From Candidatus Aminicenantes bacterium (GTDB lineage: Bacteria > Acidobacteriota > Aminicenantia > UBA2199), in assembly GCA_022865785.1 (NCBI GenBank), contig JALHTJ010000205.1, positions 1 through 47,730 of the forward strand: a DNA stretch of 47,730 nt, written 5' to 3'. The notes below the pieces were generated by a model. That model did not search any database, had not been told where the DNA came from, and saw only the letters and a program-made list of their open reading frames with translations. The position numbers were made by a program, and so were the translations under genes. Positions within the stretch are counted from its first letter, which is position 1, and the number at the start of each line of letters is the position of its first letter. This document shows, piece by piece, positions 9,803 through 47,215 of this stretch.

Positions 9803-12415
<2,613 letters not shown>

Positions 12416-19362: not shown

Positions 19363-19414
19363 TATCCCGGGGTCCTTCTGCTATGATGCAAAAAATGCAA
19401 CTGGAGGTGTGCCC

Positions 19415-32232: not shown

Positions 32233-32237
32233 CGGCT

Positions 32238-33146: not shown

Positions 33147-33162
33147 TTTTTACCCTTTATTT

Positions 33163-34128
33163 TCATAATAAAATTTCAGCATCCGCCGGCATGCCAGGTT
33201 TCAGATCAAAATCCCTGTTTGCTATTTCAATTTTAACGGCAAACACCAATTTTGTGCGCTCATCCTTGGTTTGAATATTTTTTGGAGTAAACTCCGCTTC
33301 GGGAGAGATGTAAGTGACTTTGCCTGCATATTTCCTGTCAGGGTAAGTATCAATGGTTATTTCCGCCTTTTGTCCGAGATTTATCCTGCCCAATTCAACC
33401 TCAGAGACATAAATAATCAGGTTCACTCTCGCCAGATTTGCTATCTTCACAAGTGACGACATGGGGGCGACCGTTTCGCCGACTTCCACAAACTTATTAA
33501 CTATAAAACCATCTATTGGTGATTTTACATAGCTGTCTTCAATTTGCTTTTTCAGAAGATTGACGGATGCTTTTGCTTTTCGCAAGTTGGCTTTGGCCTG
33601 GTCAATTTCCTCGACTCTGAATATTTTTCGCACTTTCATATAATTTTCTTTTGCAGATGAGAATTGCGCAATTGCTACCTGGTAGCGGGCGGATATATCT
33701 TCATATTGCTTCCGGGTAATTGACTTACTATCCCACAACTTTGTATATCTTTCAAAATCGCTTTTGGCCAGATTGAAATTAATCTCGGTTTGCTTCATCA
33801 TTTCTTCAGCCTGTTTTATATCTTCGGACCTTGCGCCTTTAAGCAGCAATTTAAGTTGTGCCTCGCTTATTTGTTCAGACGCCGCCGCCTGTTCAAGCTG
33901 GAAGCCAAGCACTTCGTGGTCGATTATGAGAATTGTATCGCCGGCTTTGACCCGTTCGCCCTCAGTTGCAATAATGGATTTTATTTCCCCGGCATTCCTT
34001 GAACTGATAGTGACATTTGTTGATTCTATTGTACCGCTGGCCTGAATGACAGCCTTGTCTCCCCCGCCCGAACATGAGAACAATGCCAGCGCCAGCAGTG
34101 CCATTACAAGTCCTTTAATTGATTTCAT
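33163..34128 (-). CDS. HlyD-family membrane fusion (periplasmic adaptor) lipoprotein
   Basis: Lipobox LALFSC. Also a barrel-sandwich block GTIESTNVTISSRNAGEIKSI...VKAGDTILIID, a long coiled coil, and C-terminal GMPADAEI. Confidence 0.85.
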   Translation of the reverse strand: MKSIKGLVMALLALALFSCSGGGDKAVIQASGTIESTNVTISSRNAGEIKSIIATEGERVKAGDTILIIDHEVLGFQLEQAAASEQISEAQLKLLLKGARSEDIKQAEEMMKQTEINFNLAKSDFERYTKLWDSKSITRKQYEDISARYQVAIAQFSSAKENYMKVRKIFRVEEIDQAKANLRKAKASVNLLKKQIEDSYVKSPIDGFIVNKFVEVGETVAPMSSLVKIANLARVNLIIYVSEVELGRINLGQKAEITIDTYPDRKYAGKVTYISPEAEFTPKNIQTKDERTKLVFAVKIEIANRDFDLKPGMPADAEILL

Positions 34129-34130
34129 TT

Positions 34131-34742
34131 TTATAACCTCTCATTTAAACACTTTGACTTATTTTGCAGAATTGTTTTTACAAATTTTATTGCCTTGTTT
34201 CCTCTGGCCTTGAGGGAAAAAGCGTAGTTGCTTAATCTCCATTCCAATACTATGAGCCTGATATAGCCTAAAACTATCACGACAAACTCTTCGACATCTA
34301 TTTCCAATTTGCAATTTTCCGGATTCATGGCGTTGACAATATCAAAAAGAGCCTTCTTTCTATTTTGAATGATGGTCTGCATTTTCTTTTTAAGAATCTC
34401 GCTTTGCTTGAATATATCCTCAGAGAATATAACCGAGGTCATTTCAACATGTTTTTCTAAATATGTGAAGTGAAATAGCATGAAGTGGCTTAATTTCTCC
34501 AAAGGATCATGAATCATGGCTATTTCCTGATTCAGTTGCTTATCAAAACCGCTGAAAAGTGTCAGGATGCCAAGAAGAATATCTTCCTTGTTTAGAAAAT
34601 GTCTGTAGATCGCCGCTTCACTGATTTTTTCTTTTCGGGCGAGTTTTCTGATCGAGAGCGAGGAATAGCCGTTCTCGTGAATAATTTTTATTGCTTGCTC
34701 AATAATATGCTTCTGCCTTGCTTCGGTGTTCAAGCGCGCCAT
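34131..34742 (-). CDS. TetR/AcrR-family transcriptional regulator
   Basis: N-terminal HTH GYSSLSIRKLARKEKISEAAIYRHFLNKEDIL. It is the first gene of the efflux operon. Confidence 0.85.
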   Translation of the reverse strand: MARLNTEARQKHIIEQAIKIIHENGYSSLSIRKLARKEKISEAAIYRHFLNKEDILLGILTLFSGFDKQLNQEIAMIHDPLEKLSHFMLFHFTYLEKHVEMTSVIFSEDIFKQSEILKKKMQTIIQNRKKALFDIVNAMNPENCKLEIDVEEFVVIVLGYIRLIVLEWRLSNYAFSLKARGNKAIKFVKTILQNKSKCLNERL

Positions 34743-34755
34743 TTTATCCTTTTGT

Positions 34756-34802
34756 TAGTTAACGTTCACTATCAATTATAAATCATTTTTTCTTTTTGTC
34801 AA
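34756..34802 (-). promoter_or_regulatory. Consensus sigma70-type promoter of the TetR/efflux operon, with a palindromic operator candidate
   Basis: On the minus strand: TTGACA (34802-34797), 16 nt, TATAAT (34780-34775). The imperfect palindrome TAGTTAACGTTCACTA (34756-34771, 14 of 18 symmetric with flanks) lies between the -10 and ATG 34742. Confidence 0.6.
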
Positions 34803-34949: not shown

Positions 34950-35804
34950 CTAGGCTTTTTTGCCCTTGCGGATATAGGTGAACCAATACAGGGTGGCCAC
35001 GAAGAAGCCGCCGCCGACGATATTGCCCAGGGTGACCGGCACCAGGTTTCTGACCAGGAAGCCGTACCAGCCGACATTGGCCAGGGATTCGGCAGACAAA
35101 CCGGCCGCGCTCGCGGCAGCCACCACTTCGTTAACCCCTTTGAGCAGCATGCCGACGGGGATGAAATACATGTTGGCGACGCTATGCTCGAATCCGGAAG
35201 CCACGAAAGCCATGATCGGAAAGAAGATGGCCCAGACCTTGCCGATGGTGTTGCGCGAGGTCAGTGCCATCCATACCGCCAGGCAGACCAGCCAGTTGCA
35301 GAGGATGCCGCGGAAGAAAGCCGGCCAGAATGCCAGGCTAACTTTGCCGGCGGCGGTTTTCAGGGCGGCAACGCCGACAGCCACGTTGGCGCCTTCCAAA
35401 AGGCCGCTGCCGAACATCAGGTAGGCTACCAACAGCGAGCCGATCAGGTTGGCCACGTAGATGACCGACCAGTTGTACAGCAGGCCGCTGAACTTGGATT
35501 TACCGTCCAGCACCGAAATGGTGATAAGAGTGTTGCCGGTGAACAGCTCCGCACCGGCTATGACGACCAGCATCAGGCCGGTGGAGAAGACAGCTCCCTT
35601 GATAAAGGCGGCCAGGCCGGCGCCGACAAACTTGGCCGCGTCATGGCCGATCATATTCGACAGTTCGCCGCCGAAACCAATGTAGGCGCCGGCCAGGATG
35701 CCCAGCACCAGCAGTTTGAACGCATTGTTCGTGGTTTTCTTGACGCAAATGTTCTCATTCAGGTCCGCGGCCACCATGGCCGGGGATTTGCAGTCGTACT
35801 CCAT
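34950..35804 (-). CDS. focA: Formate/nitrite transporter family channel (FocA-like)
   Basis: 284 aa, 6 TM, FNT signature FFPIMAFVASGFEHSVANMYFIP. It lies immediately downstream of fdhA. Confidence 0.85.
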   Translation of the reverse strand: MEYDCKSPAMVAADLNENICVKKTTNNAFKLLVLGILAGAYIGFGGELSNMIGHDAAKFVGAGLAAFIKGAVFSTGLMLVVIAGAELFTGNTLITISVLDGKSKFSGLLYNWSVIYVANLIGSLLVAYLMFGSGLLEGANVAVGVAALKTAAGKVSLAFWPAFFRGILCNWLVCLAVWMALTSRNTIGKVWAIFFPIMAFVASGFEHSVANMYFIPVGMLLKGVNEVVAAASAAGLSAESLANVGWYGFLVRNLVPVTLGNIVGGGFFVATLYWFTYIRKGKKA

Positions 35805-35819
35805 TTTTCATTCTCCTTT

Positions 35820-38543
35820 TTATGATTTAATTTTTTCTATTTGGCAGGCTGCCACTTTGAACTCGGGTATCTTGGCGATCGGGTCGAAGGCGTCGTTGGT
35901 CAGCACGTTGGCCGCGGCCTCGGCGAAATGGAAAGGGATAAACACCGAACCCAGGTCAACGCGAGGACTTTCTTGGGCCGGGATCCTGATCTCGCCGCGC
36001 CGCGACGCCACCCGCACTTCCTCGCCGTCAACGATAGCCATTTTTTTCATGTCCTGGGCGTGCATTTCCATGTACGGGCCGGCGACGTACTGCGGCAAGG
36101 CCACGGTGCGCCTGCTCATGGAACCGGTATGGTAGTGGTACAGGATGCGCCCGGTAGACAGCAGGAAAGGATATTCGGCGTCGGGCCATTCGGCCGGCGG
36201 GATGTAATCGATGGCGAAGAACTTGCCCAGGCCGCGGCTGAATTTGTCGCGATGCAGGAATTTCGTCCCCGGGTGCTCGGGATTGGGACAGGGCCATTGC
36301 AGTTTTTCGCCGTTGAGCAGGCGCTGATAGGTGATACCGGCATATTGCGGCACCAGGCGGTTAACCTCGTTAACGATGTCTTCCAGGCACTTGTAATCCA
36401 TGGCATAGCCCATGCGCGTGCTCACGTCGCGGATGGCCTCCCAGTCGATGCGCGCTTGGCCCGGAGCGGCAACGGCTTTTTCCACCCACAACACCCGGCG
36501 TTCGGTATTGGTGAAGGTGCCCTGCTTTTCGGCAAACGATGCCACCGGCAGCACCACATCGGCCAGTTGGGCGGTCTCGGTCAGGAAGATGTCCTGGACC
36601 ACCAGGAAATCGAGCTTCTCCAGGGCCAGCTTGACATGGTTGAGGTCGGGATCCGACACCATCGGGTTCTCGCCCATGATGTACAAGCCCTTTATCTTGC
36701 CTTCTGCTGCAGCATGCATGATTTCCACTACGGTCAAACCAACTTTGTCGTCGAGCTTGACTCCCCAGGCTTTTTCAAATTTCTCCCTGATAGCGGCATC
36801 GGTAACGGCCTGGTAGCCGGGATAGACATTGGGCAAAGCACCCATGTCGCAGGCCCCCTGCACGTTGTTCTGGCCGCGCAAGGGGTTGACCCCCACCGAC
36901 TCGCGGCCCACATTGCCGGTGACCATGGCCAGGTTGGCCATGGACATGACATTGTCGGTGCCGGTGGTGTGCTGAGTAATGCCCATGGAATAGACAATGG
37001 AACCGCTCTTGGCCTTGGCGTACAAACGAGCCGCCGCCTGCAGCTGTTTGGCGGGAATGCCACTGATTTTTTCCACTTTTTTCGGAGTGAAACCCTCGAC
37101 CATTTTTTTCAGAGCCTCAAAATCCTCGGTGCGAGTTTTTATGAATTCCTCATTGAGCAGCCCTTCACTGATGATCACCTGCATCATGCCGTTGGCCCAG
37201 GCCACGTCGCTGCCGTTTTTCTGGCGCAGCCACAGGCCGCCGTATTTTTCGGTGTATTTGACCAGTTCTATTTTACGCGGATCGATCACGATCAGCTTGG
37301 CGCCGTGAAAGAGAACCGCTTTCTTGATGCGCGTGGCGATGACCGGATGGGTCTCGGTGGTGTTGGAGCCGGTGACCAGGATAACCTCTGCCCGCTCAAG
37401 CTCCTCAATGGAATTGGTCATGGCGCCGGAGCCGAAAGTGCGGGCCAGGCCGGCCACGGTCGAGGCGTGGCAAAGCCGGGCGCAGTGATCGACGTTGTTG
37501 GAACCGAAGGCGGTGCGCACGAATTTCTGAAAAACAAAATTTTCCTCGTTGGTGCACTTGGCCGAAGAGAGGCCCGCCAACGCAGCAGGGCCGTGCTCTT
37601 TCTTGATGGCGCCGAATTTGTTTGCCACCAGGTCCAGGGCTTCATCCCAGCTGCTTTCAACCAGCTTACCGTCCTTGCGTATCAGGGGTTTTGTCAGGCG
37701 GTCGGGACGCTGGACGAAGTCGAGGCCGAAACGGCCCTTGACGCAGGTAGCAGCGAAGTTAGGCACCGAGTCAAAGCCCTTGACCTTGGCAATTTTATCG
37801 TCCTTGATCCAGAGCTCGAGCTGGCAGCCGACGCCGCAGTACGGGCAGGTTGTGACCACTTTCCTCTCGACGTCCTTTTTCTTCAGCTTACTTCCGTAAA
37901 CGGGTTTTTCCATCAGGGCGCCAACCGGGCAGGCCTGGACGCAGTCGCCGCAGCCGTCGCATTCCGATCCTGACCACTGGCCGGTTCCGGCCACGACATG
38001 GCTATGAATACCGCGCTGGGCCATACTCAAAACACCTTTACCCTGGATCTCGAAGCAGGCCTTGACGCAGCGTTCGCACTTGATGCACTTGGAGGAATCA
38101 TAGAACAGCACCGGCGCCGAAACATCCGGGGCCTGGGGAATCTCCTTCCAGACGGCAGCGAAAGTGCGTTTGGGCGTATCGAGGTCGTAGCGGAAGGCCA
38201 GGTCCTGGATGCCGCAGTCGCCATCGCGCTCGCAGGTGATGCAGTCGTCGTTGTGTTCGGAGAGCAGCAAGTCGGCAAGCATCCGGCGCGTCTCTTCCAG
38301 CTGCGTGTCAAAAGCCGTGATCTTCATGCCCTCCTCGACCTTGACCAGGCAGGCGGGGACCATGCCCGGCCTTCCTTCTATTTTCACCACGCACAAGCGG
38401 CAATCGCCGCTGGCGGTCACTTTTTCGTAAAAACACAAACCGGGAATATCAAAACCGTTGTCCCGGGCCACTTGCAGCAGGTTAGCTTCCTTGGCCGCCT
38501 TGATCTCCTTGCCGTCAATATTAATAGTTACCATTTCCGACAT
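35820..38543 (-). CDS. fdhA: Formate dehydrogenase catalytic subunit: NuoG-like N-terminus ([2Fe-2S], His-ligated and 2x[4Fe-4S]) plus a bis-MGD domain; cysteine type
   Basis: CFYEKVTASGDCRLC, SEHNDDCITCERDGDC, CIKCERCVKAC, CDGCGDCVQACP, TTCPYCGVGC, and active-site context HCARLCHAS (Cys where Sec-type enzymes have U). The ORF runs 907 aa without an internal stop. Confidence 0.9.
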   Translation of the reverse strand: MSEMVTINIDGKEIKAAKEANLLQVARDNGFDIPGLCFYEKVTASGDCRLCVVKIEGRPGMVPACLVKVEEGMKITAFDTQLEETRRMLADLLLSEHNDDCITCERDGDCGIQDLAFRYDLDTPKRTFAAVWKEIPQAPDVSAPVLFYDSSKCIKCERCVKACFEIQGKGVLSMAQRGIHSHVVAGTGQWSGSECDGCGDCVQACPVGALMEKPVYGSKLKKKDVERKVVTTCPYCGVGCQLELWIKDDKIAKVKGFDSVPNFAATCVKGRFGLDFVQRPDRLTKPLIRKDGKLVESSWDEALDLVANKFGAIKKEHGPAALAGLSSAKCTNEENFVFQKFVRTAFGSNNVDHCARLCHASTVAGLARTFGSGAMTNSIEELERAEVILVTGSNTTETHPVIATRIKKAVLFHGAKLIVIDPRKIELVKYTEKYGGLWLRQKNGSDVAWANGMMQVIISEGLLNEEFIKTRTEDFEALKKMVEGFTPKKVEKISGIPAKQLQAAARLYAKAKSGSIVYSMGITQHTTGTDNVMSMANLAMVTGNVGRESVGVNPLRGQNNVQGACDMGALPNVYPGYQAVTDAAIREKFEKAWGVKLDDKVGLTVVEIMHAAAEGKIKGLYIMGENPMVSDPDLNHVKLALEKLDFLVVQDIFLTETAQLADVVLPVASFAEKQGTFTNTERRVLWVEKAVAAPGQARIDWEAIRDVSTRMGYAMDYKCLEDIVNEVNRLVPQYAGITYQRLLNGEKLQWPCPNPEHPGTKFLHRDKFSRGLGKFFAIDYIPPAEWPDAEYPFLLSTGRILYHYHTGSMSRRTVALPQYVAGPYMEMHAQDMKKMAIVDGEEVRVASRRGEIRIPAQESPRVDLGSVFIPFHFAEAAANVLTNDAFDPIAKIPEFKVAACQIEKIKS

Positions 38544-38557
38544 GCATGCCTCCTTTG

Positions 38558-40180
38558 TTATTTCTCAGATTGGCTGATGGCCAACGCGAATTCGTCTTTA
38601 AAATTTTCCAGGGCGCTCTTGACCGGCATGATCAGCGACTGGCCCAAGGGGCAGAGCGATGATTTGAACATGGTTTCAGCAAGTTGCAGCAGGGTTTCCG
38701 GATCGCCCTTCTTTCCGGCCCCACGGCGGATGCGGTAGACGATATTGAGGATCTGCCGGGTGCCGATGCGGCAGGGCGCGCATTGGCCGCAGGATTCGTG
38801 GGCGAAAAACTTGGCGATGGAAAAGAGCATGTCAACGATCGAAGTGTCCTCGTTCATGACCAGTACGGCCCCGGAACCGAGCACGGCCTTGCTTTCCTTC
38901 AGGTTCTCGAAATCCATCTTCACGTCCAGCAGGGGTTCTGACAGGAACACACCGGCGGCGCCGCCGAGTAAAGCAGCTTTGAATTTTTTGCCGCCCTTGA
39001 TGCCGCCCCCGAACGAGAAAATGATCTCGCGCAAAGGCGTGCCCATGTCGGTCTCGATCAGCCCCGGATACTCGACGTGGCCGAGAATGGTAAACACCTT
39101 GGTGCCCGGGCACTTGTCGGTGCCGATCTTGCGGAACCAGCCGGCGCCATTGCTGATGATGGCCGGAATATTGGCCAGGGTTTCAACATTGTTGACCGCG
39201 GTGGGTTTCTGCCAAAGCCCGTGGCTGACCGGGTAAGGCGGCTTGACGCGCGGGTTGCCGCGCTTGCCTTCCAGCGATTCGATCAGCGCCGTTTCCTCGC
39301 CGCAGATATAGGCTCCGGCGCCCTTTTTGATTTCCAGTTCGAAGGCAAAGCCGGTCTCCAGGATGTTTTTACCCAGCAGGTTGAATTCCCGGGCCTGGTC
39401 TATGGCTTTTTGCATGCGCTCGATGGAGAGCCCGTATTCGCCGCGGATATAGACATAACCGCGGCTGGCGCCAATGGCGAAGGCGGCGATGGTCATGGCC
39501 TCGATAAGTTTGTGCGGATCACCCTCGAGGATCAGCCGGTCCTTGAAGGTTCCGGGCTCGCCTTCATCGGCGTTGCAGATGATGTATTTTTCAGCGCCCG
39601 CCGCCGTCCGCCCCGCGCCAGACGGGGCCTTACGCGTGAATTCCCATTTCATGCCGGTGGGGAATCCGGCGCCGCCGCGGCCGCGCAGCCCCGATCGCTT
39701 TACTTCTTCGATCACCTGTTCCGGGCTGAGCTTGTCGCTGAATATTTTTTCCAGGGCCCGGTAAGCGCCGGCGGCCAGGACTTCATTGATGTTTTGCGGA
39801 TCCACGGCCCAGGCTTTGTCCAGCACCACGCGGCGCTGCTCGCGCGTCAGTCCGACACGGGTTCCGGTCCGGTCAGAAGTCATGTCGCCCACATGGCCGT
39901 GGGCCAGGTCGGCGACGATCCGCCCTTTGAGCAAATGCTCCTCAATGATGCGGGCGATGTCGTTTTCCTTGACCTGAAAATAGTACATGCGGTCGGGATA
40001 AACGGTCAGGATGACGCCTTTACCGACAATGCCGACGCTGCCGCTTTCCAAGACTTTTATTTCATTCTGCAGTTTTCTCGATTGCAACTCTCTTTCCAGC
40101 CGGCGTTTGACCTGAAAAACCCCGGCCAGAACTGTTCCCTCGTCGACCGGCAGCAGGATGTGCGTACGGTAAATGCTCAT
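38558..40180 (-). CDS. NuoF/FdsB-like NAD(H)- and FMN-binding subunit with a Cys-free thioredoxin-like N-terminal domain
   Basis: SGLRGRGGAGFPTGMKWEF, NADEGEPGTFKDR, ESCGQCAPCRIG...SLCPLGQS (N3 cluster). There is no Cys in the first ~200 residues and no C-terminal ferredoxin extension. Confidence 0.85.
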   Translation of the reverse strand: MSIYRTHILLPVDEGTVLAGVFQVKRRLERELQSRKLQNEIKVLESGSVGIVGKGVILTVYPDRMYYFQVKENDIARIIEEHLLKGRIVADLAHGHVGDMTSDRTGTRVGLTREQRRVVLDKAWAVDPQNINEVLAAGAYRALEKIFSDKLSPEQVIEEVKRSGLRGRGGAGFPTGMKWEFTRKAPSGAGRTAAGAEKYIICNADEGEPGTFKDRLILEGDPHKLIEAMTIAAFAIGASRGYVYIRGEYGLSIERMQKAIDQAREFNLLGKNILETGFAFELEIKKGAGAYICGEETALIESLEGKRGNPRVKPPYPVSHGLWQKPTAVNNVETLANIPAIISNGAGWFRKIGTDKCPGTKVFTILGHVEYPGLIETDMGTPLREIIFSFGGGIKGGKKFKAALLGGAAGVFLSEPLLDVKMDFENLKESKAVLGSGAVLVMNEDTSIVDMLFSIAKFFAHESCGQCAPCRIGTRQILNIVYRIRRGAGKKGDPETLLQLAETMFKSSLCPLGQSLIMPVKSALENFKDEFALAISQSEK

Positions 40181-40635
40181 TTTCCCCTCCGCAACCCTTC
40201 GATGACTTCCGCGATGAGATCGGGGGTCAGGTTGCCGTAGACCTGGTTATTGACCATCATGGCCGGAGCCACTCCGCACACGCCCAGGCAGGATGACATT
40301 TCCAGGGTAAAGCGCTTGTCGGCGCTGGTTTCGCCGAAACCGATTCCCAGCAGCCGGATCAACTCCTTGGCTATATTCGTGGAGCCCAGCAGGTGGCAGG
40401 GCGGCGACTGGCAGACGCGGATGAGGTGCCTGCCCCGGGGTTTCAGGCTGAACATGGTGTAGAACGTGGCCACGCCGTACACGAAACTGTAGGCCAGGCC
40501 GAGGTAGTCGGCCACGGCTCGCAGGTCGGCTGCGCTCAGGTAGTGCTCGGGACTGGCATCCTGGATATCGTGCAGGATGGCCAGCAGGTTGTCGTCCGAA
40601 GCCTCGTAATTCTGCAGTATTTTTTCACGGTTCAT
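40177..40635 (-). CDS. NuoE/FdsG-like [2Fe-2S] subunit
   Basis: VCQSPPCHLLG ... SCLGVCGVAPAMMV. 152 aa. ATGA overlap with the downstream NuoF-like gene. Confidence 0.85.
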   Translation of the reverse strand: MNREKILQNYEASDDNLLAILHDIQDASPEHYLSAADLRAVADYLGLAYSFVYGVATFYTMFSLKPRGRHLIRVCQSPPCHLLGSTNIAKELIRLLGIGFGETSADKRFTLEMSSCLGVCGVAPAMMVNNQVYGNLTPDLIAEVIEGLRRGK

Positions 40636-40642
40636 ACATTCC

Positions 40643-43600
40643 TCACAGCATGGCCTCTATGGCCAATGATTCGGTCGTGCTGGCTTCCTTTTCCGGTGCC
40701 TGGTCGCGATCGCAGTGCAAACAGCGCCGCGCTTCTTCCACGGCCTCGTCCGCTGTCAATCCACGGCTGACCTCCAGGGCCAATGCGGCGACGCGCTTTA
40801 CGGCATCCTCGAGCAGAGGCTCCTTGCGTTCGATGGTCTTCAGGTAGGCCTCTTCGTCATATTGGACCTCGACCACCCGGCGCGGCTGGTCATAGAGCCG
40901 ACCTTCACGGCCTAAATAACGGTCAATGCTCACGGCCGCCAGGCGCCCTTGAGCCACGCTTTCAATCACGGTCGAGGGGTTGACGGCATCGCCGCCGGCG
41001 AATACTCCCGCGGCGCTGGTAACCATGGTGTGCGTATCCACGGCGATATGGCCGCGCTTATCCAGGTCCAGCTTGCCCCCGGTCAGTCCCAGGCTGAGCT
41101 TCTGGCCCAGGCAATAGATGATAAAACTGGCGCGGATGGTGTACTCGCTGCCAGCGACCGGGACCGGCCGGCGGCGGCCCGAATCGTCAAAATCGGCCAG
41201 CTCGGTCTTGATGCAATGGATGCCGCTGACCTTGCCGGCGCGGCCGACGATGCTGAGCGGGTTGACCAGGAAGTCCATTTCCACGTCCTCCTCCTCGGCC
41301 CCGACCACTTCTTCAAGCAGGGCCGGCATTTCGCTACGGGTGCGCCGGTAGACCAGGCGCACGTTGCCCGCTCCCAGGCGGCGGGCCAGGCGGGCGGCAT
41401 CCATGGCGGTCGAACCGCCGCCGACCACCACCACGTCATTGCCGATATTTATTTTGCGGCCCAGGTTGACCTCGCGCAGGAAATCGATGCCTGACATCAC
41501 GCCCTTGAGGTCGATGCCTTCGATATTCAGCTTCTGGGCTTGATGAGCGCCGCTGCCGATGAACACGGCGGCATAACCGCTATTCGTCAATTCGTCTATA
41601 TTGGCCACCGGAGAATTCAGTTTGATCTGCACCCCGGCCTTTTCGATGACCGCGATCTCGGCCTGCAGCTTGTCCTTGGGCAGGCGGAAATCAGGGATGC
41701 CGACCTTCATCATGCCGCCGGCCACACTCAGGGCTTCGAAAACCACCGGCTTGTAGCCCAGGCGGGTCAGGTAGAAAGCGCAGGCCAGTCCGGACGGACC
41801 GGCGCCGATCACGGCCACTTTTTCCTTGTGCGCCGGCAGCGGCGGTGCGAATCCCAGTCCTTGGTCGATGGCCCAGTCGGCGAACAGGCGCTTGATTTCG
41901 CGTATGGCCACGGCCTGGTCGTACTTGCCGCGCGAACACTTGCTTTCGCAGAAAGCCGGGCAGATCCTGGCGCAAACAATAGGGAACGGGTTGTTCTGCA
42001 TGTGCTGAAAATAGGCCTCACGCAGGCGGCCGTCGCCCATGTGCGAAACATATGAGGCGGCATCGACCCCGGCCGGGCAGGCATTAACGCAGGGAGCAAT
42101 GAATAAGGCCGCGCACACGCCGGCCGTACATTTTTTTTCCTGTATATGTTCGATATATTCGTGCTTGAAATATTTGATGGTCGAAATAACCGGGTTGGGT
42201 GCCGCCTGACCAAGACCGCAGAGTGAAGTAGCCCGTACCGTATAGGCAAGTTGTTCAAGTTTTTCAAGGTCGGCCATGGTGCCGCTGCCGTTGGTGATTT
42301 TTTCCAGCAAGTCGTACATCTGCTTCAAGCCTACCCGGCAGGGAACGCACTGGCCACACGATTCCTCGAGCGAAAATTCCAGGAAATACTTGGCCATGTT
42401 GACCATGCAGCTGTCCTCGTCCAGGACGATCAGGCCCCCGGAACCCATGATCGAGCCCAATGTTTTCAGCGACTCGTAATCAAGGGAGGTGTTCAGGTAC
42501 TTGGCCGGGATGCAGCCGCCCGAAGGCCCGCCGGTCTGGGCGGCCTTGAAGGTCTTGCCGCCGGGGATACCGCCGCCGATATCGAACACCAGTTCGCCCA
42601 GAGTGATGCCCATGGGCACTTCCACCAGGCCGGTATTGGTCACCTTGCCCGACAGGGCGAAGACCTTGGTGCCTTTGCTCCTTTCGGTGCCGATGGCGCT
42701 GAACCACTCCCAGCCATTGAGCAGAATATGGCGGACATTGGCCAGGGTCTCGACATTGTTGATCACCGAAGGCTTGCCCCACAAGCCCTTGACCGCCGGA
42801 TAAGGCGGTTTGGGCCTGGGCTGGCCGCGCTGGCCTTCGACAGAGGCCATGAGCGCCGTCTCCTCGCCGCAGACAAAAGCACCGGCCCCCATGCGCAGTT
42901 CGATGTCGAAGTGGAAAGAGGTCTCGAAAATATTTTTGCCCAGCAGCCCCATTTCGCGGGCCTGGCCGATGGCCGTGTTCAGGCGTTCGATGGCCAGGGG
43001 GTATTCGGCGCGGACGTAGATATAGCCCTTGTCGGCTCCGATGGCATAGCCGGCCAGGGCCATGCCTTCCAGCACGGCGTGCGGGTCACCCTCGAGCACG
43101 GCCCGGTCCATGAAAGCCCCGGGGTCACCTTCGTCAGCGTTGCAGAGGACGTATTTCTGGTCACTTTTGCTGTCAAAGGCGAATTTCCATTTCAGGCCGG
43201 TTGAAAAGCCGGCGCCGCCGCGGCCGCGCAGCCCCGACCTGGTGAGGGTATCGATGACCTGTTCGGGGGACATGCTGGTCACGGCCGTGCCCAGGGCCTC
43301 ATAACCGCGCTGGGCAATGTATTCGCCGATGTTTTCCGGATCGATCTTGCCGCAGTTGGACAAAACGATCTTAAGTTGCTTTTCAAAGAAAGGGATCTGC
43401 TTCTTCTGCTCGACGATCCTGCGGGCCTCGGGGACCTGCCAGAGAAATTTTTGCACCGGCCGCCCTTTGAGGAAATGCTCCTGAACGATCTCCTCGGCGT
43501 TTTCTTCCTTTAAGTTTATGTAAAAGGAACCTTCAGGATAAACGACCATGACCGGCCCCAGTTCGCAGGGGCCCATGCAGCCTGTTTCCACAACGTTAAC

Positions 43601-43717
43601 TTCTTCACTCAACCCGTTTTTTTCGATCTCCTCCAGCAGTTTCTTCTTGAGTTCATGGCTGTGGGAAGAGATACAGGCACCTCCTCCGCAGATCAGCACA
43701 TCCAGCCGTTTGTTCAT
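40643..43717 (-). CDS. Fusion protein: thioredoxin-like [2Fe-2S] domain, NuoF-like FMN/NAD(H) module, and a GltD/NfnB-like FAD/NADPH oxidoreductase module
   Basis: N-terminus: LICGGGAC...ETGCMGPC. NuoF core: SGLRGRGGAGFSTGLKWKF, NADEGDPGAFMDR, ESCGQCVPCRVG...SLCGLGQA. GltD-like part: CTAGVCAALFIAPCVNACPAG, CARICPAFCESKC, VAVIGAGPSGLACAFYL (FAD), VVVVGGGSTAMDAARLARRLGA (NADPH). It is a single 1024-aa ORF. Confidence 0.8.
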   Translation of the reverse strand: MNKRLDVLICGGGACISSHSHELKKKLLEEIEKNGLSEEVNVVETGCMGPCELGPVMVVYPEGSFYINLKEENAEEIVQEHFLKGRPVQKFLWQVPEARRIVEQKKQIPFFEKQLKIVLSNCGKIDPENIGEYIAQRGYEALGTAVTSMSPEQVIDTLTRSGLRGRGGAGFSTGLKWKFAFDSKSDQKYVLCNADEGDPGAFMDRAVLEGDPHAVLEGMALAGYAIGADKGYIYVRAEYPLAIERLNTAIGQAREMGLLGKNIFETSFHFDIELRMGAGAFVCGEETALMASVEGQRGQPRPKPPYPAVKGLWGKPSVINNVETLANVRHILLNGWEWFSAIGTERSKGTKVFALSGKVTNTGLVEVPMGITLGELVFDIGGGIPGGKTFKAAQTGGPSGGCIPAKYLNTSLDYESLKTLGSIMGSGGLIVLDEDSCMVNMAKYFLEFSLEESCGQCVPCRVGLKQMYDLLEKITNGSGTMADLEKLEQLAYTVRATSLCGLGQAAPNPVISTIKYFKHEYIEHIQEKKCTAGVCAALFIAPCVNACPAGVDAASYVSHMGDGRLREAYFQHMQNNPFPIVCARICPAFCESKCSRGKYDQAVAIREIKRLFADWAIDQGLGFAPPLPAHKEKVAVIGAGPSGLACAFYLTRLGYKPVVFEALSVAGGMMKVGIPDFRLPKDKLQAEIAVIEKAGVQIKLNSPVANIDELTNSGYAAVFIGSGAHQAQKLNIEGIDLKGVMSGIDFLREVNLGRKINIGNDVVVVGGGSTAMDAARLARRLGAGNVRLVYRRTRSEMPALLEEVVGAEEEDVEMDFLVNPLSIVGRAGKVSGIHCIKTELADFDDSGRRRPVPVAGSEYTIRASFIIYCLGQKLSLGLTGGKLDLDKRGHIAVDTHTMVTSAAGVFAGGDAVNPSTVIESVAQGRLAAVSIDRYLGREGRLYDQPRRVVEVQYDEEAYLKTIERKEPLLEDAVKRVAALALEVSRGLTADEAVEEARRCLHCDRDQAPEKEASTTESLAIEAML

Positions 43718-43729
43718 ATCGCCCTCGCT

Positions 43730-44092
43730 TTATTCCTTGACTTCGATGATGGATTCCGAAAGGGGATTGCCGTTTACCAGGTGCTCGGCTACGATCTTGC
43801 GGGCCATTTCGCCGCTGACATTACCGTAAACCACGGATGGTTTGCCTTCCTCCATGACCGTGACGATCGGTTCGTGCGAGCTCAAACCGCGTTCACCAGC
43901 CTGACGGACGATGACGTCGCGCAGGTTGCGTTTTTCCACTTCTTCAAGCAACACTTTCAGGGTTTCACGGGCGCCGGCAGCGATGCCGCTGGTACCCATG
44001 CCCACAACCACCTGCAGCCGCGTTTTTCCGGCTCGTAGCAGCATGTCCTTTTCCGTTTTTTCCCTTATCTTCTTTAAATCCTCGAGTTTCAT
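43730..44092 (-). CDS. HndB-like thioredoxin-fold ferredoxin-domain protein lacking all cysteines
   Basis: The start MKLEDLKKIREK at 44092 follows GGAG and overlaps the upstream stop as ATGA. VVVGMGTSGIAAGA and ERGLSSHEPIV align with the CGIAAG / GC.G.C..EP motifs of HndB or HydB N-termini, but with Ser in place of Cys. The 120-aa protein contains no Cys at all. Confidence 0.65.
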   Translation of the reverse strand: MKLEDLKKIREKTEKDMLLRAGKTRLQVVVGMGTSGIAAGARETLKVLLEEVEKRNLRDVIVRQAGERGLSSHEPIVTVMEEGKPSVVYGNVSGEMARKIVAEHLVNGNPLSESIIEVKE

Positions 44093-44619
44093 TTTTTCTC
44101 CTTGTTTATGGTTTGCCCAGGGCCTGCGGCTTCGGCTTTCAGGTCTCGCAAAATCTTGATGGTCTTCTGGGGATTGAGCCGGCCGTGCACCTCTTCGTCG
44201 AGCATCATGACCGGGGCCAGTCCGCAAGCTCCGAAACAACGGGCCGTGGACAGGGTATAGAAGCGATCGGCCGTGGTGCCACCCACCTTGATGCCCAATT
44301 CCTTTTCCATGACCTTGATGATGTCCGATGCCCCCTTGACATGGCAGGCCGTGCCCAGGCAGAGGTTGATGATATGATCGCCGATGGGATCCAGGCGGAA
44401 AAAATTGTAAAAGGTTATCACGCCGAAAACCTTAGCCAGGGGCACATTCAATTCACGGGCAACGAAGTGCTGAACCTCCAAGGGCAGATAACCGAAAATT
44501 TTCTGGGCCCGGTGCAGGACCTGGATCAGGGGGCCGGGAACATTGCGGCTGGCCTCGATGAATTTTTTCAGTTCCTGGTAATGGGCATTATCCGGGATAT
44601 GGAGCGGTTGAGCTTCCAT
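44089..44619 (-). CDS. NuoE/HndA-like [2Fe-2S] subunit
   Basis: The start MEAQPL at 44619 follows AGGAGG. LCLGTACHVKG ... ARCFGACGLAPVMML. Confidence 0.8.
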   Translation of the reverse strand: MEAQPLHIPDNAHYQELKKFIEASRNVPGPLIQVLHRAQKIFGYLPLEVQHFVARELNVPLAKVFGVITFYNFFRLDPIGDHIINLCLGTACHVKGASDIIKVMEKELGIKVGGTTADRFYTLSTARCFGACGLAPVMMLDEEVHGRLNPQKTIKILRDLKAEAAGPGQTINKEKK

Positions 44620-44682
44620 GCAAGCCTCCTTTTGAAAGTGAAAGACCATGATATCCCCTGCCTTGGCCTGGACAAGATCGCA

Positions 44683-45018
44683 TTACTTCGATGCGGAAAT
44701 GAGGGCGTACAATTTGCCGGCAATAGTGAAGGAATCCTCGGCTCCGGAAAGAATGAACAGGCCTTCCTGCCCGGCCCGGGCCAAAACGGCGGCTTCGGGT
44801 TCGCTGCCGCGGCTGAGGACGATGCCGGCCAGTTTTTTCAACTGGGCCACGGCCACGATGTTCAGGTGCCTTTGCACGGTGATCCACAGGCAACCTTCCT
44901 CGGCGTTGGCAATGACATCGGACAGCAGGTCGGACACGTAACCGCTCGTCACTTCCTGATCGACACCAGCAGCCAGAATTTTCAAGTCCAGCTTGTCGGC
45001 AACCTCTTTGACCAACAT
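44683..45018 (-). CDS. DRTGG-domain protein (small; function unknown); first gene of the formate operon
   Basis: 111 aa. The pattern LKILAAG...VTSGYVSDLLSDVIANAEEGCLWITVQRHLNIVAVAQLKKLAGIVLSRGSEPEAAVLARAGQEGLFIL resembles the small DRTGG proteins found next to NuoEF-type hydrogenase genes. The assignment was made by eye. Confidence 0.55.
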   Translation of the reverse strand: MLVKEVADKLDLKILAAGVDQEVTSGYVSDLLSDVIANAEEGCLWITVQRHLNIVAVAQLKKLAGIVLSRGSEPEAAVLARAGQEGLFILSGAEDSFTIAGKLYALISASK

Positions 45019-45087
45019 CTATTTTCTCCTCTTCAGCGTATCCGCGGGTAAAAAACCTGACCCTGGACGCAATCCGCGGCCGGAGTC

Positions 45088-45104
45088 ACATGAAAAATTC
45101 ATGT
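45088..45104. promoter_or_regulatory. Palindromic operator candidate in the divergent control region
   Basis: ACATGAA-AAA-TTCATGT with 7-nt perfect arms, 70 nt upstream of the DRTGG/formate operon ATG (45018). It overlaps a possible minus-strand promoter: TTGACT 45129-45124, 15 nt, TATAAC 45108-45103. Confidence 0.4.
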
Positions 45105-45170
45105 TATAAAAAATCGGCTAAAAAGTCAAGATATAATTTGAATAAAAATTTTATTTTAGATAAGAAAATT

Positions 45171-45265
45171 CCCGGCGTAGGGACGCGGCACGCCGCGCCC
45201 CTACCCTCTTCTCTCATCACGCATAACGCATCACGCATCACGATAGATCGACTGACTTGGGATTT
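45171..45265. repeat. REP-like element: GC-rich imperfect palindrome followed by about four heptad repeats
   Basis: GTAGGGACGCGGCACGCCGCGCCCCTAC (45177-45204), then ATCACGC ATAACGC ATCACGC ATCACG (45216-45242), then CTTGGGATTT (45256-45265). Confidence 0.7.
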
Positions 45266-45322
45266 GCGGATTTTCTCTTTCAATGATAATATTAAGGCGC
45301 TCAAGAATCTGGGGAGGTACCC

Positions 45323-45877
45323 ATGACCGATTTTTACAAATGCTCCATCTGCGGGAAGATCGTCAAGGTGATCGCTGAAGGCAAGGGACAGCTGGTCTGT
45401 TGCGGCGAACCCATGACGATTCTTTCCACATTCAAATCCGTTCAGGAAGTCCTGGATTTCGCCATCGAAAAAGAAGAAGAAGCCCGCCAATTCTACCTGG
45501 ATTGGTCGAACAAGCTGGACAACAAGGCCCTGCGCGAGCAATTCCTGCAGTTCGCCGGCGAGGAAAACCAGCACAAAGAGAAGCTGCAGCGGGTCAAGAG
45601 CGGCAGCACCTTCAAACCCTCGGCCAAGCAGGTGACCGACCTTAAAATCGTCGACTACCTGGTCGACATCGTACCCACTCCGGACATGGACTACCAGGAA
45701 GCCCTGATCGTGGCCATGCGCCGGGAAAAAGCCTCGTTCAAATTCTACAATGACCTGGCGGCCATGGCCGAGGACGAGCCCATGCGCGAAACCTTCCTGG
45801 CCCTGGCCCAGGAAGAAGCCAAACATAAACTGCGCCTGGAGACCTGGTACGAAAAGGAAATCTACACTGAAAACTGA
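45323..45877 (+). CDS. Desulforedoxin domain fused to a ferritin-like/rubrerythrin-type diiron domain
   Basis: The N-terminus [27 protein letters not shown] carries the Dx CxxC...CC motif. It is followed by two E...ExxH pairs ([10 protein letters not shown]...GEENQHKEK and [10 protein letters not shown]...QEEAKHKLR). GGAGG precedes the ATG. Confidence 0.75.
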
Positions 45878-45924: not shown

Positions 45925-46281
45925 ATGATTAAAGTCCGCGACATCGTCGCCCTGCTTGAGGCCGAAGTCCTATCCGGGGAAAGCAAACTGGATGAAGAGG
46001 TGAAATCGGTAGGAGCCAGCGATATGATCAGTGACATCCTGGCCCTGACCCAACCCGGGATGATGGTTCTGACCGGCTACACTTATCCGCAGGTGATCCG
46101 CACCGCCCTGGTCACCGATCTGCTGGGACTGATCGTGGTTCGCGGCAAGAACATCGCCCCGGAAACCATCGCCTATGCCCGTGAGAACAATTTTCTCCTG
46201 CTGCGCACCCGCAGCTACCTCTATTCCTCGTGCGGCAAGATCTACGCCACCGGATTGCGGGGCAGCGATGTCGGAAAATAA
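45925..46281 (+). CDS. DRTGG-domain protein (small; function unknown)
   Basis: 118 aa. VGASDMISDILALTQPGMMVLTGYTYPQVIRTALVTDLLGLIVVRGKNIAPETIAYARENNFLLLRT. It overlaps the next gene by 14 nt. Confidence 0.6.
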   Translation: MIKVRDIVALLEAEVLSGESKLDEEVKSVGASDMISDILALTQPGMMVLTGYTYPQVIRTALVTDLLGLIVVRGKNIAPETIAYARENNFLLLRTRSYLYSSCGKIYATGLRGSDVGK

Positions 46282-47215
46282 CAAACTGGCCCGCTACGCG
46301 GCCATTTTTGAGGATATCAAGGCCGGAGAGATCATGAGTTCCAACGTGGTCGAGATCTCCGCCGACAAAAAGATCGCTCACGCCAAGGAACTGATGAAGA
46401 TCAAGAAGATCTCGGGCATGCCGGTGGTTGATGAGAAAAAGCAGCTGATCGGCATCATCAGCATCGAGGACATTATTCACGCCTTCGAATTCAACAAGAT
46501 CAACGACCCCATCCACCGGATCATGTCGACCCAGGTTGTCACCATCCACAAGGACGACTCGCTGGCTGATGTGGTGGACAAGTTCGAAAATTACAAGTAC
46601 GGCCGCTTCCCGGTGGTCGACGACGATAAGCGCGTCTGCGGCATCATCAGCAAGGAAGATATCCTGCATGGCATCCTGGAAAAGTTCAACCTTATCTACA
46701 TCCACGACCAGAAACGCACCAGCACCCTGAACACAGAATACTCGGCAATTACCGGCGAAAAGCTGAAGGTCGAGGAAGCCGAATTCCACTACCAGATCGA
46801 CAGCAGCGACATCGACGCCGCCGGCACGGGCGCCGCCATGCTCAAACAGTTTCTGACCGGTAAGAATTTTCACAGCGACATCGTGCGCCGCGTCGGTGTG
46901 GCCACCTATGAGGCCGAGACAAACGTGGTCATCCACAGCCGCGGCCAGGGCGACATCTACTTTTACCAGCATGAAGACCGCTTCATCGTACGCGTGGTGG
47001 ACAACGGTATCGGCATCGAAGACCTGGACAAGGCCATGAAGGAAGGGTACTCGACCGCCCCCGATTACATCCGCGAGCGCGGCTTCGGCGCCGGCATGGG
47101 CATCGCCAACATGAAACGCTTCGCCGACAAACTGGTGATCATTTCCGAAAAGAAAGTCGGCACCCAGGTGGAGATGATCTTCTATCTGCCCACGCAGACC
47201 TGGCCTTTGATATAG
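46268..47215 (+). CDS. CBS-pair domain fused to a SpoIIAB/RsbW-like HATPase domain (putative serine kinase / anti-sigma-type regulator)
   Basis: ATG at 46268 (MSENNKLARY). Two CBS motifs (IMSSNVVEISADKKIAHAKELMKIKKISGMPVVDEKKQLIGIISIEDI and IMSTQVVTIHKDDSLADVVDKFENYKYGRFPVVDDDKRVCGIISKEDI). HATPase block EAETNVVIHS...VVDNGIGIED...GFGAGMGIANM. Confidence 0.7.
   Translation: MSENNKLARYAAIFEDIKAGEIMSSNVVEISADKKIAHAKELMKIKKISGMPVVDEKKQLIGIISIEDIIHAFEFNKINDPIHRIMSTQVVTIHKDDSLADVVDKFENYKYGRFPVVDDDKRVCGIISKEDILHGILEKFNLIYIHDQKRTSTLNTEYSAITGEKLKVEEAEFHYQIDSSDIDAAGTGAAMLKQFLTGKNFHSDIVRRVGVATYEAETNVVIHSRGQGDIYFYQHEDRFIVRVVDNGIGIEDLDKAMKEGYSTAPDYIRERGFGAGMGIANMKRFADKLVIISEKKVGTQVEMIFYLPTQTWPLI

Follow-up and report, generated by a model that had tools for sequence, protein, structure and literature searches.

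A putative formate dehydrogenase operon of a Candidatus Aminicenantes bacterium in which a predicted NADP(H)-binding module takes the place of the ferredoxin-binding domain of a HydB-type subunit

In HydB, the B subunit of HydABC hydrogenases (BfuB in the Bfu nomenclature), a ferredoxin-like domain with two [4Fe-4S] clusters, B3/B4, comes after a hinge. According to the NfnABC structures of 2025, the B3/B4 domain takes low-potential electrons from the swinging C1 cluster of the C subunit and hands them to ferredoxin. The BfuB definition of Schut et al. (2022) combines the NuoF FMN-binding, SLBB, and NuoF [4Fe-4S] domains (IPR011538, IPR019554, and IPR019575) and requires a ferredoxin-type domain as well (PMC9304861). 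The hinge corresponds to the 'B2' site of A. mobile HydB, formed by C438, C476/T, H525, C531, and C536 (Schut 2022, PMC9304861; PMC12018979) and interpreted nowadays, for most structures, as a Zn hinge; its ligands are kept in virtually all BfuB proteins and are missing from non-bifurcating homologues (Schut 2022; Xiao 2025; PMC9304861, PMC12018979). A different architecture was described, from genomes only, by Zheng and Huang (2024, mSystems): in their 'sub-type I BfuB' of group A3 [FeFe] hydrogenases, B3/B4 is replaced by a dihydropyrimidine dehydrogenase (DPD) domain II and a FAD/NAD(P) domain, and the sub-type I BfuABC(D) clusters occur, among others, in Hydrogenedentota, Syntrophus gentianae DSM 8423, and Desulfotignum balticum DSM 7044 (PMC11406978). 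The subject of the present work is a formate dehydrogenase operon of a Candidatus Aminicenantes bacterium (assembly GCA_022865785.1) that encodes a NuoF–GltD fusion protein; it lies on contig JALHTJ010000205.1, whose whole analysed stretch of 47,730 nucleotides is called the window below. To our knowledge, the low-potential partner of every HydABC/Bfu-type enzyme characterised so far is ferredoxin, and NADPH, where it is involved (Stn and NfnABC), enters via the A subunit.

The operon comprises eight co-directional, tightly packed genes on the minus strand, from 45018 to 34950 (open reading frame (ORF) listing; Pfam and NCBIfam), in the order DRTGG, NuoE1, a Cys-free thioredoxin-like protein, the 1024-aa NuoF–GltD fusion, NuoE2, NuoF2, FdhA, and FocA. 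This order had been given in the original prediction, together with a domain dissection of every subunit that agrees throughout with the Pfam and NCBIfam match labels, including a Cys-type FdhA with a NuoG-like N-terminus. As calculated from the coordinates, neighbouring genes overlap by 4 nt or lie 7-15 nt apart; the one exception is the interval of about 63 nt after the DRTGG gene. Since promoter and terminator scans of the region returned sites no more numerous than in shuffled sequence, it is from this spacing that a single transcript is proposed. Our reading, to which we give about an even chance, is that the operon encodes a soluble multi-subunit Mo/W formate dehydrogenase/CO2 reductase of the HydABC ('Bfu') lineage that would couple to NAD(H) as well as NADP(H), the latter replacing ferredoxin.

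The center of this proposal is the fusion (40643..43717, minus strand), in which Pfam identifies 2Fe-2S_thioredx, Complex1_51K, SLBB, NADH_4Fe-4S, Fer4_20, and Pyr_redox_2 domains. Residues 1-100 (43418..43717, minus strand) form an N-terminal thioredoxin-like [2Fe-2S] domain ('B5') with the invariant cysteines C10, C15, C47, and C51. Alignment, Foldseek, and invariant columns define residues 101-539 (42101..43417, minus strand) as a NuoF core of the HydB/BfuB type, with FMN/NAD(H) motifs, the B1 [4Fe-4S] ligands C454, C457, C460, and C500, and, by residue-by-residue alignment to HydB, the Zn/'B2' hinge ligands C437, T475, H524, C530, and C535. Among 43 diverse homologues there is no variation at C437, H524, C530, C535, or the cysteines of B1 and B5, or in the FMN/NAD motifs. 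Residues 4-539 align to HydB of the A. mobile NiFe-HydABCSL (7t2r_B) with 791 bits, the identity being 66% in a Foldseek alignment of the ~425-residue resolved core, and the NuoF half also aligns end to end with the [FeFe] HydABC chain 7q4v_B; the HydB chains score 791 and 769 bits, and the alignment to them ends at residues 539-544. The Pfam equivalents of the BfuB core domains (PF01512, PF10531, and PF10589) are all present, as are the hinge ligands and the B5 cluster, and the same gene cluster supplies a BfuC (NuoE1) and a BfuA-type FdhA. Of the BfuB features, the ferredoxin-type 2×[4Fe-4S] domain (IPR017896; B3/B4, CX2CX2CX3CP twice) was not found, the fusion having no Fer4-type Pfam match. 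By alignment, then, the fusion is a HydB-type BfuB that keeps every HydB/Bfu hallmark up to the hinge.

The two small proteins encoded upstream fit the same type. NuoE1 (176 aa; 44089..44619, minus strand; Pfam 2Fe-2S_thioredx, E = 4e-47; best NCBIfam match HoxE) is a BfuC-type [2Fe-2S] subunit with the cluster ligands C87, C92, C128, and C132; its ORF reaches 44649, and the likely start is the ATG at 44619, behind the ribosome-binding site AAAGGAGG. Only the Cys-free thioredoxin-like protein (120 aa; 43730..44092, minus strand; weak NCBIfam 2Fe-2S ferredoxin match), the equivalent of HndB, HydD, or 'BfuD', lies between NuoE1 and the fusion, and in the window NuoE2 and NuoF2 separate the fusion from FdhA. 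The Cys-free protein is 35% identical to the N-terminal [2Fe-2S] domain of the fusion, with all four Cys positions replaced, and is a paralogue of that domain; its orthologues in related cassettes are 70-100% identical. A 169-aa ORF starting at a TTG was also considered for this gene and rejected as an artefact, the real start being the ATG at 44092.

Beyond the hinge, residues 540-1003 (40709..42100, minus strand) make up a circularly permuted GltD/NfnB-like module, recognised by Fer4_20, Pyr_redox_2, alignments, and Foldseek. The Fer4_20 (DPD domain II) match covers residues 529-619 and runs on into Pyr_redox_2. The module begins with C543-x3-C547-P, 8 residues past hinge C535, and is predicted to ligate two [4Fe-4S] clusters through C543, C547, C582, C586, C590, and C594 together with C999 and C1002 of an RCLHC motif. 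Its FAD Rossmann motif is G638-x-G640, and its NADPH site comprises G766-x-G768-x-x-A771 and Y790-R791-R792. The GxGxxA and YRR motifs are the same in kind as those of NfnB, StnC, and NfnA, proteins that bind NADPH (motif description in PMC7483475); the module thus carries predicted FAD and NADPH sites, with a presumed specificity for NADP(H). The closest chains are NfnA of Thermococcus sibiricus (367 bits), NfnA of Caldicellulosiruptor saccharolyticus (365 bits), and StnC of S. ovata (314 bits), with which the module aligns from about their residue 102 to 530-567. The permutation, with a start at PCxxxCP and an end at RCLxC, is apparent in the alignments to 9n5u_A, 9bov_A, and 8oh5_C as against 4ylf_B, and the N-terminus of T. 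maritima NfnB (residues 4-43, 'EEAxRCLxC') aligns with residues 964-1003 of the fusion. The two predicted GltD-type [4Fe-4S] clusters fall at the topological position of B3/B4. As far as the sequence tells, in the fusion a permuted Stn/NfnA-type GltD module stands in the place of the ferredoxin-binding B3/B4 domain.

The enzymes that are built from the same blocks combine them differently. The bifurcating transhydrogenases StnABC of Sporomusa ovata and NfnABC (Nfn-Bfu) of C. saccharolyticus and T. sibiricus have a NuoE-like C subunit, a HydB-type B subunit, a GltD-like FAD/NADPH module, and a NuoG/FdhA-like scaffold, and they share with the fusion both the GltD permutation and the Zn hinge. 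In them, the NuoG-like A subunit contains GltD as an insert that supplies mid-potential electrons, and the B subunit binds ferredoxin at B3/B4; in the window, it is B that carries GltD, where B3/B4 would be, and FdhA lacks a GltD insert. The FDH-like domain of StnC, moreover, is inactive (PMC7483475), whereas the A subunit of the window is apparently an active formate dehydrogenase (FDH). It had been proposed that the known enzymes carry GltD on a HydA/NuoG-like subunit; this holds for the solved or characterised StnABC and for the NfnABC of C. saccharolyticus and T. sibiricus (PMC7483475, PMC10482914) but not for sub-type I BfuB (PMC11406978). The sub-type I BfuABC(D) clusters are the nearest described relatives, having a BfuB architecture identical to the fusion, a BfuC partner, and an optional HndB-like BfuD. 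The window differs in that the partner is an FDH instead of a group A3 H-cluster [FeFe] hydrogenase, and in the addition of a second, stripped NuoE/NuoF pair and a formate channel; neither an FDH link nor two BfuB/BfuC (BC) pairs in one cluster are mentioned in the accessible part of the 2024 report (PMC11406978). The wording of the HydDB rule, by which any partner with a NuoF domain leads to A3 and which speaks of 'GltD but not NuoF', suggests that proteins with both GltD and NuoF had been met earlier and placed in group A3.

That the 1024-aa ORF joins two genes through an assembly or sequencing error is practically out of the question. Among the 120 clusters listed at 90% identity, more than 100 reach full length (~1000-1030 aa, 53-98% identity) and stem from NCBI, JGI, ENA, and Logan sources, and at least 10 representatives of 50%-identity clusters likewise cover fusion residues ~7-125 through ~1004 of 1024. 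The predicted cofactor ligands on either side of the junction are all invariant among the 43 diverse members, and the AlphaFold2 (AF2) model (pLDDT 86, pTM 0.76) is confident across the junction region. Full-length homologues, invariant ligands, and this model exclude a sequencing artefact, and PMC11406978 describes the same architecture. The fusion is therefore genuine, as originally supposed. Foldseek places its first half with HydB, NfnB, and StnB and its second half with NfnA, StnC, and NfnL; no PDB chain spanning both halves was found (query-normalised TM-score at most 0.46). The homologues come from metagenome-assembled genomes (MAGs) whose labels, in themselves unreliable, read Aminicenantes, Spirochaetes, Bacillota/Moorellaceae, Deltaproteobacteria, and Atribacteria. 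A common and already characterised subunit had been named as the finding that would speak against the original prediction: common it is, in metagenomes, but not characterised, PMC11406978 offering a genome description only.

The identity of the GltD module also bears on whether ferredoxin is still needed. The GltD FAD could be a second, Nfn-type bifurcating flavin, and formate, NAD(H), NADP(H), and ferredoxin would then be coupled via two centers; this was speculated by Zheng and Huang (2024; PMC11406978) for their proteins, and the GltD fold is indeed that of the bifurcating subunit in NfnAB/NfnSL. The Arg of NfnB that contacts FAD N5 (R201) is kept as R678 in the fusion, but the same Arg is found in StnC, whose FAD has been shown to be non-bifurcating (PMC10482914), and a residue common to bifurcating NfnB and non-bifurcating StnC is uninformative as a test. 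The GltD of the fusion is closest to the non-bifurcating Stn/NfnA type and has the same permutation, and the canonical B3/B4 ferredoxin-docking domain is missing. Neither a ferredoxin gene in the operon nor, among Pfam and NCBIfam matches of the eight operon proteins, a [2Fe-2S]-FAD subunit like the NfnA/PyrK partner of classical NfnAB/NfnSL, which could serve as second exit, is present. We consider this explanation improbable.

The catalytic subunit, FdhA (907 aa; 35820..38543, minus strand; Pfam and NCBIfam), scores 869 bits with the TIGR01591 Fdh-alpha model (cut-off 666) and contains the Pfam domains Fer2_4, NADH-G_4Fe-4S_3, Fer4 dicluster, Molybdop_Fe4S4, Molybdopterin, and Molydop_binding. 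Five Fe-S motifs are found: a [2Fe-2S] cluster (C37, C48, C51, and C65), a His-ligated [4Fe-4S] cluster (H97, C101, C104, and C110), two ferredoxin-type [4Fe-4S] clusters, and the pterin-proximal [4Fe-4S] cluster. The active site is C358/H359/R556, and as C358 occupies it and no in-frame stop occurs, the protein is of the Cys type. No match to Fe_hyd_lg_C, Pyr_redox, or Fer4_20 was obtained in FdhA with Pfam and NCBIfam. It aligns over its full length with the FdsA-type chains 7vw6_A and 6tg9_A, and its residues 4-420 match HydA of the NiFe-HydABCSL (7t2r_A). FdhA is thus, on its predicted ligands, the catalytic subunit of a Mo/W-bis-pyranopterin guanine dinucleotide (bis-PGD) formate dehydrogenase with a BfuA/NuoG-like N-terminus, and it looks catalytically competent.

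NuoF2 (540 aa; 38558..40180, minus strand; Pfam and PDB alignments) and its partner NuoE2 (152 aa; 40177..40635, minus strand; Pfam and NCBIfam), a [2Fe-2S] subunit with the ligands C75, C80, C116, and C120, form a much simpler pair. NuoF2 has FMN/NAD(H) motifs and a single [4Fe-4S] cluster (C464, C467, C470, and C510). Its N-terminal thioredoxin-like domain is Cys-free, as are its first 200 residues; the hinge positions are occupied by S447, R485, and A534, and the chain stops 6 residues past the H525 equivalent, with no C-terminal Fe-S domain. These features hold across 120 homologues of 464-544 aa. Having lost the B3/B4 domain, the hinge His/Cys ligands, and the B5 cluster, NuoF2 corresponds to a non-bifurcating 'sub-type II' BfuB. 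Similar beta subunits, lacking B3/B4, B5, and hinge ligands, are found in the non-bifurcating NADH hydrogenases S. wolfei Hyd1ABC and S. aciditrophicus HydAB; these stand alone, whereas next to the stripped module of the window type there is always a complete BfuBC(D) module. The definition of Schut et al., requiring a ferredoxin-type domain (PMC9304861), would therefore capture neither of the two NuoF proteins.

The last four genes had been read as an NAD-linked FDH of the FdsGBA type plus a formate channel, and their layout bears this out: NuoE2-NuoF2-FdhA follows the FdsG-FdsB-FdsA arrangement of FdsABG(D) from Rhodobacter capsulatus and Cupriavidus necator. The alpha subunit has the Fe-S N-terminus, the bis-PGD domains, and the Cys/His/Arg site, the beta subunit has FMN and one [4Fe-4S] cluster, and the gamma subunit is NuoE-like. 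FdsA and FdhA align at full length with 737 bits and share the Cys active site, and both FdsB and NuoF2 have an N-terminal extension and a single [4Fe-4S] cluster. The implied lineage may nevertheless be a different one. When the NuoF copies were placed by bit-score ranking against PDB chains, NuoF2 came closest to HydB-type chains (546 and 540 bits), ahead of Nqo1 (405 bits) and FdsB of C. necator (365 bits) and R. capsulatus (306 bits), and unlike in FdsABG it is embedded with a BfuB-GltD module. A small FdsD-like ORF is not apparent in the operon, although no search aimed at FdsD was made. The closest matches for both NuoF proteins and for the N-terminal Fe-S domain of FdhA are the [FeFe] HydABC and [NiFe] HydABCSL enzymes of A. 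woodii, T. kivui, T. maritima, and A. mobile, with the same operon grammar (C, D, B, A) and with relatives accompanied by DRTGG, HATPase, and PHP regulators. The window departs from them in having no ferredoxin-binding domain on either B subunit, in its NADP(H) module and second BC pair, and in its substrate, formate/CO2. A looser precedent, likened by description, is offered by Moorella thermoacetica FdhAB (FdhB domain content summarised in PMC5736913) and Geobacter SfrAB, in which a pterin FdhA-type subunit is joined to an NADP(H)-binding Fe-S flavoprotein beta subunit in the absence of NuoE and NuoF; SfrB is similar to GltD (PMC7483475).

The strongest evidence on how the parts belong together comes from comparative genomics. 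A peptide-pattern scan, hence biased towards close relatives of the query and dependent on unreliable MAG taxon labels, yielded about 35 fusion-bearing loci with enough flanking sequence, and the gene order of the window recurs in about 30 independent contigs. The nearest public contig (98% protein identity) belongs to a MAG labelled Chrysiogenales, and other close ones (84-91%) are mostly labelled Aminicenantes or Acidobacteria. Two classes of loci can be distinguished. Class I has a single BC pair, NuoE-(BfuD)-fusion, directly followed by FdhA in four loci (L018, L023, L025, and L027; Thermodesulfovibrionales and others) or, with the fusion immediately followed by [FeFe] HydA, in L068/L069 and L072, L068 and L072 reproducing the sub-type I arrangement. 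These loci show that a BfuA-type subunit can be an immediate partner of the fusion. Class II, to which the window belongs, has DRTGG-NuoE1-BfuD-fusion-NuoE2-NuoF2 and then a catalytic partner: FdhA in 19 loci, [FeFe] HydA with maturases in 6, and a NuoG-like protein with [NiFe] small and large subunits in 3. The proposed check for co-occurrence of the fusion with fdhA has thus a positive outcome in both classes. One locus (L076) is rearranged to fusion-HoxUYH-NuoE2-NuoF2. The catalytic gene differs even between close relatives, being FdhA in L004 and HydA in L005, and HydA replaces FdhA in the further sister loci L010, L014, and L022. Three loci (L011, L061, and L075) have the cassette followed by both [FeFe] HydA and FdhA, which suggests formate/H2 dual-function versions. 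The split FdhA of L075 was considered as a selenocysteine gene and rejected: the codon is TAA and the frame changes, pointing to a frameshift or an assembly error.

Across 24 loci, the identities of the two NuoF genes to the window copies co-vary (r = 0.94); the two diaphorase modules diverge together. A search outward from NuoF2 led to three orthologous class II cassettes (L077-L079), in which NuoE1 is 63-66%, BfuD 70-75%, NuoE2 61-65%, and NuoF2 65-66% identical to the window proteins, and in which the first BfuB is 71-73% identical to the NuoF half of the fusion, as compared with only 55-64% for class I fusions. They are [FeFe]-hydrogenase operons with two NuoE/NuoF pairs, in the order BfuC1-BfuD-canonical HydB-NuoE2-NuoF2-HydA; no description of such double-diaphorase hydrogenases was found in the searchable literature. 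In two of them (L078 and L079) the first BfuB bears a canonical 2×CxxCxxCxxxCP ferredoxin-like domain, not GltD, and in L077 the first HydB (554 aa) stops right after the Zn hinge and has no output domain. Since orthologous cassettes carry a ferredoxin-like domain, GltD, or none, the BfuB output domain has been swapped while the chassis stayed the same. Modularity is thus seen at either end of this conserved chassis, in the catalytic subunit and in the BfuB output domain. These observations provide the strongest evidence that the GltD module may functionally occupy the ferredoxin port, and likewise the strongest that both diaphorase modules would belong together. The cooperation of the two modules that was originally suspected is accordingly supported, the six-gene diaphorase cassette staying together through inheritance as its catalytic subunit is exchanged. 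As an aside, one NuoF2 cluster (P0368; label Aminicenantes) has entries in 274 blocks of the sequence collection.

The census weighs on a further explanation, that two unrelated enzymes are simply co-transcribed. NuoE2, NuoF2, and FdhA, grouped as they are in gene order, would then be an FdsGBA-like NAD+-FDH, and NuoE1, BfuD, and the fusion a free NADH:NADP+ transhydrogenase with no BfuA, possibly ferredoxin-linked, that redistributes formate-derived reducing power. It amounts to the built-in transhydrogenase of the original prediction, only with the two enzymes physically separate. Bfu enzymes lacking BfuA have been predicted ('Type 4', PMC9304861), and the NAD(H) and NADP(H) sites of this first module are joined by Fe-S clusters. 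The simpler loci, however, put FdhA or HydA right after the fusion with no second NuoEF, and among the census loci (contig-truncated ones excluded) none had the first module without a catalytic gene of the BfuA type in the same cluster. A transhydrogenase passing electrons from NADPH to NAD+ without coupling would moreover run down the cellular NADPH/NADH disequilibrium. We regard this explanation as quite unlikely.

For the preferred reading, a linked formate dehydrogenase/CO2 reductase, the following mechanism is proposed. FdhA would oxidise formate or reduce CO2, its NuoG/BfuA-type Fe-S wire would carry electrons to the B1-FMN-C1 core of a BC pair, and NAD(H) would react at FMN. Module 1 (NuoE1, BfuD, and the fusion) would be a full BfuBC core, with the B1-FMN-C1 'flavobicluster', B5, and the Zn/B2 hinge, in which electrons would pass from C1 to the GltD [4Fe-4S] pair, FAD, and NADP(H), a path replacing the B3/B4-to-ferredoxin route. 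Module 2 (NuoE2 and NuoF2) would serve NAD(H) in a minimal, FdsGB-like form that does not bifurcate. Overall, the reaction would read 2 formate + NAD+ + NADP+ <-> 2 CO2 + NADH + NADPH, probably running towards formate in a fermenter, with NADPH helping to pull NADH oxidation. When estimated roughly from textbook potentials, with the nucleotide ratios assumed, the in-vivo E' is about -290 mV for NADH/NAD+ and about -370 mV for NADPH/NADP+; that of CO2/formate, -340 to -310 mV at environmental ratios of 10^3-10^4, lies between both nucleotide couples, and the coupling would therefore be close to equilibrium and reversible. The confurcating, formate-producing direction is favored by the attached FocA and by the H2-evolving sister operons in predicted fermenters. 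Co-assembly and stoichiometry of the seven soluble proteins, bifurcation or confurcation, and the physiological direction are all inferred here.

Module 2 might belong to the same complex, as its non-bifurcating NAD(H) port, or serve as an alternative partner and form a second isoenzyme. The first option would lead to one seven-protein, ferredoxin-independent Bfu complex whose flavobicluster splits or merges electrons between NAD(H) and NADP(H), using the gap of ~80-100 mV, with module 2 as the NAD(H) port; this specific form of the proposal is a tentative one, well short of an even chance. The second option is unlikely: two isoenzymes would share FdhA with no seven-subunit complex. With module 2, FdhA would form a simple NADH-linked FDH, reversible and active at very low formate in the manner of the non-bifurcating Hyd1ABC of S. 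wolfei, and with module 1 an NADH+NADPH-coupled form. Three-gene versions with only the fusion module do exist, each operon has one BfuA-type docking subunit, 'sub-type II' BfuB clusters occur alone in Acidobacteriota and other phyla (PMC11406978), and non-bifurcating HydABC is experimentally established (PMC7311640). Both isoenzymes active together would nevertheless amount to a formate-mediated, futile NADPH-to-NAD+ transhydrogenase, and the co-inheritance (r = 0.94) and the adjacency fixed across phyla and three catalytic partners exceed what this model needs.

Several points weigh against the proposed FDH itself. NuoF-type sites could in principle also use NADP(H), as HytB does. Acceptors only ~80-100 mV apart offer little thermodynamic leverage, a situation unprecedented for Bfu enzymes. 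Co-assembly of both modules is inferred from synteny, two BC pairs would have to dock to the product of a single fdhA gene, and the model leaves module 2 unexplained, the three-gene versions apparently working without it. Only genomic literature was found for this architecture (PMC11406978), and the bias of the census and the unreliable MAG labels apply here too.

The remaining genes and signals of the operon are accessory to this picture. The first gene encodes a 111-aa DRTGG-domain protein (44683..45018, minus strand; Pfam DRTGG, E = 8e-7) that is probably regulatory or accessory; it occupies the same position in related loci, and distant relatives have DRTGG, HATPase, and PHP genes there. 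The last one encodes a FocA-type formate channel of 284 aa (34950..35804, minus strand; Pfam Form_Nir_trans, E = 2e-79; TIGR00790 above cut-off), found in Aminicenantes-type loci and missing from several spirochaete loci. A weak candidate sigma-70-like promoter, TTGACT-17-TAACAT (45101..45129, minus strand; 9/12 consensus matches), lies ~80 nt upstream of the first gene. At the other end, a perfect sigma-70 promoter, TTGACA-16-TATAAT (34802-34775), opens a separate downstream TetR/efflux unit and thereby bounds the operon. A perfect 17-bp palindrome (7+3+7), ACATGAATTTTTCATGT at 45087-45103, overlaps the candidate -10 and is loosely Rex-like; it was considered as an operator and the idea was dropped. 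The 15-bp core occurs once in the window (45089-45103), as it does in 16 of 100 shuffles, and lacks a match in 79 related loci, even in the 98%-identical L001; a conserved operator is unlikely here. An Rfam scan of the operon and its surroundings detected no RNA family, riboswitches included. Outside of it, about 17 kb away, lie a MobA-like gene (17790-18380, plus strand; Pfam NTP_transf_3, E = 4e-33) and an FdhD gene (18343-19095, plus strand; Pfam FdhD-NarQ, E = 3e-46), which, going by the known roles of their families, are likely cofactor-maturation genes for the FDH; the two overlap and are followed by a rubrerythrin gene (19340-19882).

Elsewhere in the window, a 1026-aa protein (14129-17209, minus strand) combines an APH-type phosphotransferase, Peptidase_M23, and a class-III aminotransferase. 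A counterpart with these three domains (1004 aa; positions 1-1259 of L079) adjoins the related double-NuoEF hydrogenase cluster of that locus, and the protein is therefore conserved in the lineage. Two segments have a low GC content, 28000-34800 (41-42%) and 8000-10000 (37%), against 57-61% in the operon, and may be horizontally acquired islands; the former contains an ABC-2/ABC/OEP/HlyD efflux system and the TetR regulator behind the promoter at 34802-34775, and the latter response-regulator genes beside a hybrid histidine kinase (9755-12415). A tRNA-Met (CAT) gene at 4330-4402 (plus strand) overlaps the 5' end of the ORF at 4290-5798 (PP-loop ATPase, TilS-like), whose real start must be downstream of the tRNA. 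The ORFs of 240, 286, 647, 247, and 207 aa at 45104-45826 and 46112-46972 (both minus strand), 988-2931 (minus strand), and 12600-13963 (plus strand) gave no Pfam match at the thresholds used.

The fusion was reported in 2024 for [FeFe] hydrogenases only, from sequence and with other mechanistic speculation (PMC11406978). In the searchable literature, which covers few subscription-journal papers, no description was found of a link between fusion-type BfuB and FDH or [NiFe] modules, of the dual BC-pair cassette, or of the series in which a ferredoxin-like domain, GltD, or no domain is swapped on an orthologous chassis. This natural domain-swap series asks directly whether a Bfu flavobicluster can bifurcate to NADP+, and the dual-diaphorase cassette is a second unexplained design feature. 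Current classifiers would call such enzymes simply 'bifurcating A3 hydrogenase' or 'NuoF'. The system is also relevant to the engineering of NAD(P)H-linked CO2 reduction to formate. If the proposal is right, Aminicenantes, Spirochaetota, and further uncultured anaerobes would use one chassis for catalysis with formate, [FeFe]-H2, and [NiFe]-H2. Many uncultured fermenters among the Aminicenantes, Spirochaetota, Atribacteria-like bacteria, and Thermodesulfovibrionales could then shed NADH as formate or H2 via NADPH instead of ferredoxin, and the redox-balance models for anoxic sediments and digesters would change.

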